Shown here in pieces: positions 11,539 to 11,765 of a stretch of 64,000 bases of DNA (its first letter is position 1; each line of letters opens with the position of its first letter). Origin of the DNA: Escherichia coli (lineage in GTDB: Bacteria > Pseudomonadota > Gammaproteobacteria > Enterobacterales > Enterobacteriaceae); assembly GCF_044647545.1 (NCBI RefSeq), contig NZ_CP172818.1; one strand, written 5' to 3'. The position numbers and the translations under genes were made by a program. The notes beneath the pieces are model-generated. The model made no database searches, had not been told where the DNA came from, and worked only from the letters and a program-made list of their open reading frames with translations.

Positions 11539-11653
11539 TATTTTGCTCCAGCAATTACGGTAGGGCATGGATGATGTTCAACGACACGGCGACCACTGAC
11601 TGCCGATGAATCCATTGTGCATCAGGCAAGGGAAAAGAAAATTAGCCCAAATT

Positions 11654-11672
11654 ATGTTTCATAGTGAAACAT
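11654..11672. promoter_or_regulatory. Perfect palindrome ATGTTTCA-TAG-TGAAACAT in the dhaK/dhaR divergent intergenic region; candidate DhaR operator
   Basis: Palindrome read directly; further GTTTCA/TGAAAC half-sites follow at 11680-11700. Assignment to DhaR is inference. Confidence 0.4.
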
Positions 11673-11765
11673 ATTCTTTAATGAATGTTCCATATTGAAA
11701 CTTTTACGTGTATTAATACTTAAAATTGCGAGCCGGAACACCTTTTGTCATAAGGGATGCGGGAT

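Follow-up and report, generated by a model that had tools for sequence, protein, structure and literature searches.

The spacer between the divergently transcribed dhaR gene and the dhaKLM operon of Escherichia coli contains a palindrome, and the question raised by this locus is which protein, if any, recognises it. The dhaK promoter is reported as σ70-dependent in UniProt and by Bächler 2005, and dhaR is said to be autorepressed. Passages in PMC8046923 and PMC5890353, where Bächler 2005 is cited, describe DhaR as the activator of dhaKLM, with DhaL·ADP acting as co-activator at the DhaR sensor domain and DhaK as antagonist. In Klebsiella, control of dhaT and dhaB is also assigned to DhaR in a passage of the 2018 paper PMC5890353, which cites Zheng et al. 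2006. No published DhaR operator, site sequences included, was found in the open-access full text that was searched, Bächler 2005 (EMBO J 24:283) lying outside that search. The palindrome had been put forward as a candidate DhaR operator in a first-pass annotation of this DNA, and comparative genomics (the footprint across genomes, the regulon-wide occurrence of box pairs, and the recognition helix of the regulator) now supports this assignment at the sequence level. We propose that the palindrome and a second copy of it constitute two putative operator boxes of DhaR, O1 and O2, a reading to which we assign a probability of about 0.85. The boxes are very probably the expected operator of a well-studied locus, and not a new kind of element.

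Within the window, i.e. the whole 64-kb stretch of DNA analysed, RefSeq annotation and Pfam matches place dhaK on the minus strand and dhaR on the plus strand at either side of the palindrome, in agreement with the divergent arrangement first described for it (Table 1). The limits originally given for the spacer, 11569–11765, were wrong because the dhaK open reading frame had been called ten codons too long; counted from the annotated dhaK start at 11538, the true dhaK-dhaR spacer extends from 11539 to 11765 (227 bp). A 551 bp segment around the palindrome is 100% identical to that of several complete E. coli genomes (FDAARGOS_497, ST648 and others), and was found in 5,383 of 5,426 complete genomes of the species. 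The spacer is 99.6% identical to that of K-12 MG1655, with a single difference located outside both boxes. Over 281 bp spanning the spacer there are two differences, one within dhaR and one at window position 11675 (T for G), just beside the palindrome and outside the repeats. Published K-12 data thus apply directly to the window, given such near-identity of the spacers (position in NC_000913.3 = window position + 1,239,300). In K-12, O1 corresponds to 1,250,954–1,250,972, O2 to 1,250,985–1,251,003, and the predicted dhaK start to approx. 1,250,907.

Table 1. Features of the dhaKLM-dhaR locus (positions in the window; strand given as + or −, with a point for the two dyads)
Feature	Position	Strand	Basis and remarks
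dhaM	8396-9814	−	Transferred annotation; dhaKLM operon
dhaL	9825-10457	−	Transferred annotation; dhaKLM operon
dhaK CDS, first gene of dhaKLM, 356 aa	10468-11538	−	RefSeq annotation of identical genome; Pfam Dak1; MKKLIN start
Conserved block at start of predicted dhaK leader, given as + strand, GTTCAACGACACGGCGACCACTGACTGCCGAT	11576-11607	−	Near-invariant in Escherichia/Citrobacter
Predicted dhaK transcription start	11607 (±2 nt)	−	Placed from the −10 position only
Predicted dhaK −10, CACAAT (dhaK sense)	11614-11619	−	Fixed offset from proximal box
T-rich stretch (in dhaK sense, AATTTTCTTTT), 11 nt past O1	11633-11643	−	Covers predicted −35 position, approx. −36 to −26; presumed role
Box O1, dhaK-proximal, ATGTTTCATAGTGAAACAT	11654-11672, centre 11663	.	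Matches 32-site consensus; position kept in Escherichia/Citrobacter
Box O2, dhaK-distal, nearer dhaR, ATGTTCCATATTGAAACTT	11685-11703, centre 11694	.	Imperfect 19-bp copy
Conserved stretch TAAAATTGCGAGC, dhaR side of O2, at 18-30 nt	11721-11733	+	aaaTGyGAkC at fixed offset at dhaK, dhaD/gldA and dhaB promoters
dhaR CDS, 639 aa, GAF-PAS-AAA+-HTH_8, no GAFTGA loop	11766-13685	+	Annotation; Pfam

The 8+3+8 palindrome ATGTTTCA-TAG-TGAAACAT is located exactly where it had been reported, at 11654–11672, and remains perfect for one further base on each side (TATGTTTCA-TAG-TGAAACATA, 9+3+9, 11653–11673). The additional half-sites that had been noticed beyond it belong to a second, imperfect 19-bp copy, O2, which lies in register with O1 at a distance of 31 bp from centre to centre. 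O2 has 2 mismatches to the exact O1 sequence and 1 mismatch to the degenerate pattern, and the two boxes are the only matches (3 mismatches or fewer) in the 64-kb window. The functional unit would be the two boxes together rather than the perfect palindrome on its own.

A 131 bp region around the boxes is at least 99% identical in 4,248 E. coli records and 95–99% identical in a further 1,118; nearly all of 5,383 genomes of the species thereby reach 95% or more. Changes in the variants sampled, the most divergent class included, fall in the central triplet of O1, the linker, the flanks and position 1 of O2, a weakly conserved position, with none in the conserved half-site core. A scan with the DhaR protein, taking one genome per species, provided four Escherichia lineages, three Citrobacter, Pantoea ananatis, and a homologue of 47% identity from a record labelled Martelella alba. 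In alignments of the four Escherichia lineages and the three Citrobacter genomes, O1 and O2 stand out as islands of conservation, in register, between flanks that diverge; the other Escherichia species sampled carry ATGTTCCATAACGGAACCA at the O2 position. Conservation among relatives had been suggested as a check on the palindrome: both boxes are kept in Escherichia and Citrobacter, and the pair recurs in further genera.

Pairs of the 19-bp box AyGTTYCAttaTGRAACrT (core GTTYC-N5-GRAAC), with a spacing of 31 or 32 bp, precede dhaK in eight further genera. Beyond Escherichia and Citrobacter, the dhaK-upstream pair is present in Pantoea, Klebsiella, Rahnella, an Enterobacter-like contig, Serratia and the locus of the Martelella-labelled homologue. 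A second class of promoter, that of dhaD or gldA, features a pair in Pantoea, Klebsiella and the Enterobacter-like contig, and a third, in the spacer between the dhaT operon and dhaB, does so in Klebsiella and the Enterobacter-like contig. Klebsiella pneumoniae and the latter contig, both with a full dha regulon, therefore carry three pairs each (dhaK, dhaD, and dhaT-operon/dhaB spacer). The Pantoea spacer, where gldA is the divergent gene and dhaR comes after it, contains two pairs, one near dhaK and one near gldA; Rahnella has one pair. In Serratia, whose DhaR is 54% identical, dhaR is convergent with gldA-dhaKLM, the pair lies upstream of gldA-dhaKLM, and no box was seen upstream of dhaR. 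The same applies to the orientation of the Martelella-labelled locus, where dhaR is convergent with dhaKLM and GCGTTTCATTTTGAAACGC and CCGTCTCAAAAAGGAACAA are located 32 bp apart upstream of dhaK. Thus placed, the boxes go with the target operons and not with the regulator gene. That E. coli has a single pair is due to the lack of dhaD, dhaT and dhaB at its locus, with dhaR directly abutting the pair.

A uniform scan with ATGTTYCANNNTGRAACAT, allowing up to 5 mismatches, was carried out on 168.8 kb of dha loci fetched via DhaR homologues. It returned 17 box pairs, all of them 31 or 32 bp apart and all in dha promoter regions, with none elsewhere in the 168.8 kb scanned; in 30 block shuffles the average was 0.13 pairs, and no shuffle had more than 1. 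Because the pattern was built on the E. coli site, this enrichment is partly circular; occurrence of the pairs in other taxa, and at dhaD and dhaB promoters, is nevertheless independent evidence. These figures bear on whether the palindrome might be a functionless product of chance. By chance, 64 kb should indeed contain around 1.5 perfect palindromes whose arms are 9 nt or longer. The window contains 7 of this arm length with loops of up to 6 nt, and 20 first-order Markov simulations averaged 1.45, so that one of them alone stands out only mildly. What carries weight is the second copy three helical turns away, together with conservation across genomes: the palindrome is duplicated at 31 bp, kept in at least nine genera and in three promoter classes, and such pairs occur more than 100-fold above shuffles. 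The pair scan and the 32-site consensus effectively refute a chance origin, the probability of which we regard as close to nil. At least one other palindrome of the window, at 17329–17350 near ychF, has the appearance of an ordinary terminator-like hairpin.

In the consensus of 32 sites, G3, T4, A15 and C17 are invariant, T5, C7, G13 and A16 nearly so, and the central positions 8–12 are variable. Conserved half-sites around a variable centre are the pattern of a site for a dimeric helix-turn-helix protein. It could be argued instead that the palindrome acts through its own structure, as a cruciform in DNA or, in RNA, as a hairpin or terminator; when folded as single-stranded DNA, the sequence around O1 forms a hairpin with a stem of 9 bp (−6.2 kcal/mol, z = −2.1 relative to shuffles). 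The stem, however, is weak, AT-rich and without a T-run, a terminator scan detected no terminator-like site, and Rfam gave no match. The 32 sites keep their half-site bases and not just complementarity, many natural boxes (O2, and those of Klebsiella and Citrobacter) are imperfect and unable to fold, and the boxes lie upstream of both predicted transcription starts. A structural role is thus extremely improbable.

Assignment of the boxes to DhaR is consistent with the properties of the regulator. Its domains are GAF, PAS, Sigma54_activat, AAA_lid and HTH_8 (Pfam), and all eight orthologues compared, the most distant at 47% overall identity, share the recognition helix of the latter, IGRTTLWRK, without a change; next to it comes MK, IK or LR. 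Box pairs co-occur with dhaR and mark other members of the dha regulon in at least nine genera. Some features of the spacer would also fit a different arrangement, in which the boxes are bound by another protein (a nucleoid protein, CRP, NtrC or an unknown factor) and the site of DhaR is elsewhere, e.g. at 11576–11607. There are further conserved blocks in the spacer; an NtrC genomic-SELEX peak (40% intensity) maps to approx. 11633 in the window, so other dyad-binding proteins can bind in this neighbourhood in vitro; and the inner 17 bp of O1, TGTTTCAnnnTGAAACA, have the TG…CA-N3-TG…CA frame of the NtrC dyad. Nevertheless, the box pair is the sole element common to the three promoter classes and to all taxa, the block at 11576–11607 is restricted to Escherichia and Citrobacter, no second regulator gene is common to the loci compared, and the box fits neither the CRP (TGTGA-N6-TCACA) nor the FNR consensus. 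We consider binding by such another protein very unlikely.

The most serious rival to DhaR is GlpR, the repressor of the glp genes, which belongs to the DeoR family and is unrelated to DhaR. The boxes might be GlpR operators, or operators shared by GlpR and DhaR, and dhaKLM would then be under glycerol-3-phosphate control. The glp and dha systems both handle glycerol, and their half-sites share ATGTTC and are nearly alike (ATGTTYC in dha boxes, ATGTTCG for GlpR). The GlpR consensus is WATGTTCGWTAWCGAACATW (WATGTTCGWT·AWCGAACATW). It is matched at 20 of 20 positions in the K-12 glpD promoter (TATGTTCGATAACGAACATT), and O2 fits it at 16 of 20, when the candidate sites at glpFK and glpT-glpA reach only 14–15. 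Closer comparison argues against GlpR. All 32 dha boxes are odd, 19-bp dyads (GTTYC-N5-GRAAC, with C7/G13), whereas the glpD site is an even, 20-bp dyad (GTTCG-N4-CGAAC) with G/C where dha boxes have C/G beside the core. With spacings that differ by one base pair (N5 as opposed to N4), the right half of O2 is out of register by 1 bp. O2 has 4 mismatches to the consensus, O1 scores below 14 of 20 (more than 6 mismatches), and the GlpR core has no match within 2 mismatches in the spacer. Furthermore, the dha pairs are 31–32 bp apart, in contrast to the adjacent tandem operators of glpD at approx. 20 bp (562 and 582 of the scanned glpD sequence). Among the loci compared, boxes are confined to those that carry dhaR, and they are also found at the dhaB and dhaT promoters, reported as DhaR-controlled in a passage of PMC5890353. 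Identification of the boxes as GlpR operators, whether of GlpR alone or shared with DhaR, is on this evidence highly improbable.

Clues on how the putative DhaR boxes may be used were obtained from 14 promoters anchored on the proximal box, with offsets counted from the outer edge of the nearer box. The most conserved flank is ATTTTyTT at offsets 12–19. All 14 promoters have a −10-like hexamer, its second base A and its sixth T, at offsets 35–40 (34–39 for dhaB). It reads CACAAT in Escherichia and Citrobacter, CAGAAT or GAGAAT at other dhaK promoters, TATAGT in Serratia, and TAAAGT or TACAGT at the gldA/dhaD and dhaB promoters. In addition to these 14, the Martelella-labelled locus has TATGCT at the same offset. 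With the transcription start that this hexamer predicts near 11607, O1 would be centred near −56 and O2 near −87. A simple σ70 promoter scan of the spacer gave no match, and neither the leader block nor the spacer has an Rfam match at E ≤ 1.

A σ54-dependent enhancer is ruled out by the lack of a GAFTGA loop in DhaR and of a −24/−12 promoter in the spacer. Neither GAFTGA nor a close variant is present in the protein, the corresponding region reading EEFIGGDRTDNENGRLSRLELA. The only spacer match to the −24/−12 pattern (TGGCAC-N5-TTGCW) has 3 mismatches, overlaps O2 and is without the −12 GC, and matches across the window are fewer than expected by chance. Absence of both GAFTGA and a −24/−12 promoter, together with a −10-like hexamer at fixed position, fits the σ70 dependence ascribed to the dhaK promoter.

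Two published sets of transcription data were compared with this geometry. In Kim et al. 2012, the sole start assigned to dhaK consists of 6 reads on the minus strand inside dhaR, at approx. 11856 in the window, a different place from the predicted start at 11607, and was discarded as the dhaK promoter; the supplement of the same paper contains no Klebsiella dha gene starts. Shimada et al. 2014 proposed, from genomic SELEX with RNA polymerase, TTGAAC-16-CGTAAT for dhaK and TTGCGA-17-CATAAG for dhaR. These hexamers would give a different geometry, with starts inside the Shine-Dalgarno sequence of dhaK and downstream of that of dhaR, and the dhaK pair is not conserved beyond Escherichia and Citrobacter. 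They were set aside on account of starts at or past the Shine-Dalgarno sequences and of the poor conservation of the dhaK pair.

Beyond the distal box, which in the window means the dhaR side of the pair, all taxa have the motif aaaTGyGAkC at a fixed offset (21–30), and this holds for dhaK, dhaD/gldA and dhaB promoters. The block at 11721–11733 that contains it may possibly represent a dhaR −10 (TAAAAT, 11721–11726) with its discriminator; more speculatively, O2 would in that case be centred near −39 and cover the −35 position of dhaR. Alternatively, the block is possibly a CRP-like half-site, aaaTGyGAkC. A scheme may also be envisaged in which GlpR occupies O2 in vivo and a third partner, e.g. 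cAMP-CRP, binds at the aaaTGyGAkC element, which we consider unlikely. If GlpR did bind O2, the glp and dha branches of glycerol use would be wired at one operator, and a third partner, if real, would make for a fixed three-part architecture for an AAA+ activator on σ70 polymerase. An extra half-site, GGAACAC, is a weak candidate for a third DhaR site: its virtual centre at 11732 is 38 bp from O2 and out of phase with it, so that a third DhaR site is a weak explanation for autorepression.

Taken as DhaR operators, the two boxes suggest the following mechanism. One DhaR dimer would bind each 19-bp dyad through its C-terminal HTH_8 domains, and two dimers would lie on the same face of the DNA since 31–32 bp corresponds to about three helical turns. 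Dimers on O1 and O2 may bind cooperatively or assemble into a higher oligomer. From positions around −56 and −87, DhaR would activate σ70 polymerase at a dhaK promoter with CACAAT as its −10 and, where a −35 hexamer would be, a T-tract. The signal would pass through the sensor domain of DhaR, with DhaL·ADP switching activation on and DhaK opposing it. Autorepression of dhaR might be achieved by the same bound complex, located beside or over the dhaR promoter region.

This organisation may be compared with that of known systems. With the DhaR-dhaKLM system of E. coli K-12 there is no biological difference: locus, regulator and divergent arrangement are the same, and what the present analysis would add to it is the predicted consensus, the 31–32 bp pairing and the promoter geometry. 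The dha regulon of Klebsiella and Citrobacter (dhaKLM, dhaD-dhaR, dhaT operon and dhaB) displays the same pairs and the same −10 offsets at three promoter regions. The enhancers of NtrC and other bacterial enhancer-binding proteins offer a structural parallel, as these proteins, like DhaR, have an AAA+ domain followed by a Fis-type HTH_8, and bind 17–19 bp dyads about three turns apart. At glnAp2, for example, the NtrC sites are located at −140 and −108, 32 bp apart. Unlike such systems, DhaR is without GAFTGA, there is no −24/−12 promoter, and the boxes would lie much closer (approx. −56 and −87) to a σ70-type −10. A second parallel is TyrR, which like DhaR has an AAA+ domain resembling that of enhancer-binding proteins, reportedly also lacks GAFTGA, and acts at σ70 promoters with paired dyad boxes upstream. 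The TyrR boxes (TGTAAA-N6-TTTACA) differ from dha boxes in half-site and in having N6 where the latter have N5; TyrR moreover relies on adjacent strong and weak boxes and forms hexamers in an amino-acid-dependent manner, whereas DhaR responds to the protein partners DhaK and DhaL. A passage in Shimada and Ishihama places DhaR in the “TyrR family”. On this comparison, the pair of sites would resemble a bacterial enhancer in architecture and TyrR boxes at σ70 promoters in placement and use.

The regulatory relationship between DhaR and dhaKLM has been known since 2005, and the present finding matters little beyond annotation; if the boxes were unmapped before, the consensus and the paired architecture would represent a modest refinement and not a discovery. 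It would narrow the operator of a characterised regulator down to two 19-bp boxes. With the consensus GTTYC-N5-GRAAC, in pairs 31–32 bp apart, DhaR regulons can be annotated across Enterobacterales, among them the Klebsiella and Citrobacter dha regulon employed in industrial 1,3-propanediol production, and the consensus may also serve in the design of DhaR-based dihydroxyacetone biosensors. DhaR is one of few AAA+ proteins of the enhancer-binding type that act on σ70 polymerase, and the predicted conserved geometry, with boxes near −56 and −87, a T-tract and a −10 at fixed distance, would provide a starting point for understanding how such proteins activate transcription.

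Promoters of the dha genes, when aligned with the predicted DhaR boxes as anchor, share a further conserved element, aaaTGyGAkC, which lies at a constant offset of 21-30 nt past the distal box, on the side opposite to the activated gene (see table). It was found at the dhaK, dhaD/gldA and dhaB promoters in every taxon compared. In both dhaB promoters its sequence, AAATGTGATC, is a perfect left half-site for CRP. By our own comparison, the E. coli sequence TGCGA-N6-ACACC-TTT would make a fair CRP-like site. Alternatively, the element may represent the -10 sequence (TAAAAT) and discriminator of a divergent promoter.

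The distal box itself, O2 (11685-11703), resembles operators of another regulator. In a comparison with the K-12 glpD promoter (L039, 562-581), the GlpR half-site ATGTTCG is nearly identical to the DhaR half-site ATGTTYC, and the DhaR box has one base pair more between its halves. O2 matches the GlpR 20-mer consensus at 16 of 20 positions, better than the candidate sites at glpFK and glpT-glpA. Judged from this likeness, cross-talk between GlpR and DhaR at O2 is possible. Between O2 and the start codon of dhaR, a well-matching right half of the DhaR box, GGAACAC (11735-11741), stands alone and is kept in the Escherichia lineages. A role as third DhaR site is doubtful, because the centre of the corresponding virtual box (11732) would be out of phase with the helix, at a distance of 38 bp from O2.

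Published K-12 data, whose U00096.2 coordinates were converted with a verified offset of +777, place several signals in and next to the dhaK-dhaR spacer. Genomic SELEX gave an NtrC peak of 40% intensity at 1,250,156 (window ~11633; PMC8743547) and a peak for RpoS holoenzyme at 1,250,254 (window ~11731; PMC5493296), and the spacer is also bound by RpoD holoenzyme (PMC3946193). A possible reason for the NtrC peak is the TG…CA-N3-TG…CA frame, which the proximal DhaR box, O1, has in common with the NtrC dyad. A weak minus-strand start (6 reads) at 1,250,379 was assigned to dhaK in the table of Kim et al. 2012. This position corresponds to window ~11856, within the 5' end of dhaR and 318 nt upstream of the dhaK start codon, and a transcript beginning there crosses the operator region and is antisense to the beginning of dhaR. 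Closer to dhaK, the inferred leader begins with a block that hardly differs between Escherichia and Citrobacter and is better conserved than the spacer around it; in Klebsiella and Pantoea this block is just loosely recognisable, and an Rfam search with it gave no match.

Conserved features at dha promoters and palindrome near ychF
Feature	Record	Position	Sequence	Remarks
aaaTGyGAkC element	window	11721-11742	TAAAATTGCGAGCCGGAACACC	beyond distal DhaR box; promoter alignment
Conserved block, start of inferred dhaK leader	window	11576-11607	ATCGGCAGTCAGTGGTCGCCGTGTCGTTGAAC	minus-strand sense; alignments
Perfect 22-bp palindrome	window	17329-17350	AATCCACGCAATTGCGTGGATT	adjoins ychF; A-run and T-run at flanks
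Extra DhaR box pair, Klebsiella	L034	2604-2654		upstream of dhaD/gldA
Extra DhaR box pair, Klebsiella	L034	8656-8705		dhaT-operon/dhaB spacer
Extra DhaR box pair, Enterobacter-like contig	L037	2623-2673		upstream of dhaD/gldA
Extra DhaR box pair, Enterobacter-like contig	L037	8660-8709		dhaT-operon/dhaB spacer
Extra DhaR box pair, Pantoea	L009	1586-1636		upstream of dhaD/gldA

On the 3' side of dhaR (window ~13700-17000, equivalent to 7323-10551 of L001), the annotation of the identical genome lists a small hypothetical gene, a phage integrase pseudogene fragment and a DEAD/DEAH helicase, which suggests that a strain-variable island adjoins dhaR. Among the DhaR entries from Escherichia, several cover just part of the protein or are truncated (proteins P0014, P0070 and P0078, and Escherichia albertii, L012, where the match is limited to residues 528-638), and disrupted dha loci have been reported in O157:H7 lineages (PMC8046923). 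In some lineages, the dha system seems to be in decay. The palindrome near ychF resembles an ordinary intrinsic terminator that acts in both directions. Further perfect palindromes with arms of at least 9 nt occur in the window at 934-955, 19779-19800, 45421-45442, 51991-52011 and 58788-58809.

Each of the extra DhaR box pairs in Klebsiella, the Enterobacter-like contig and Pantoea is accompanied by a TAAAGT-type -10 sequence at a constant offset. The box pairs at dhaD/gldA and dhaB/dhaT, together with these -10 sequences, therefore can be used directly to predict the DhaR regulon of bacteria that produce 1,3-propanediol.
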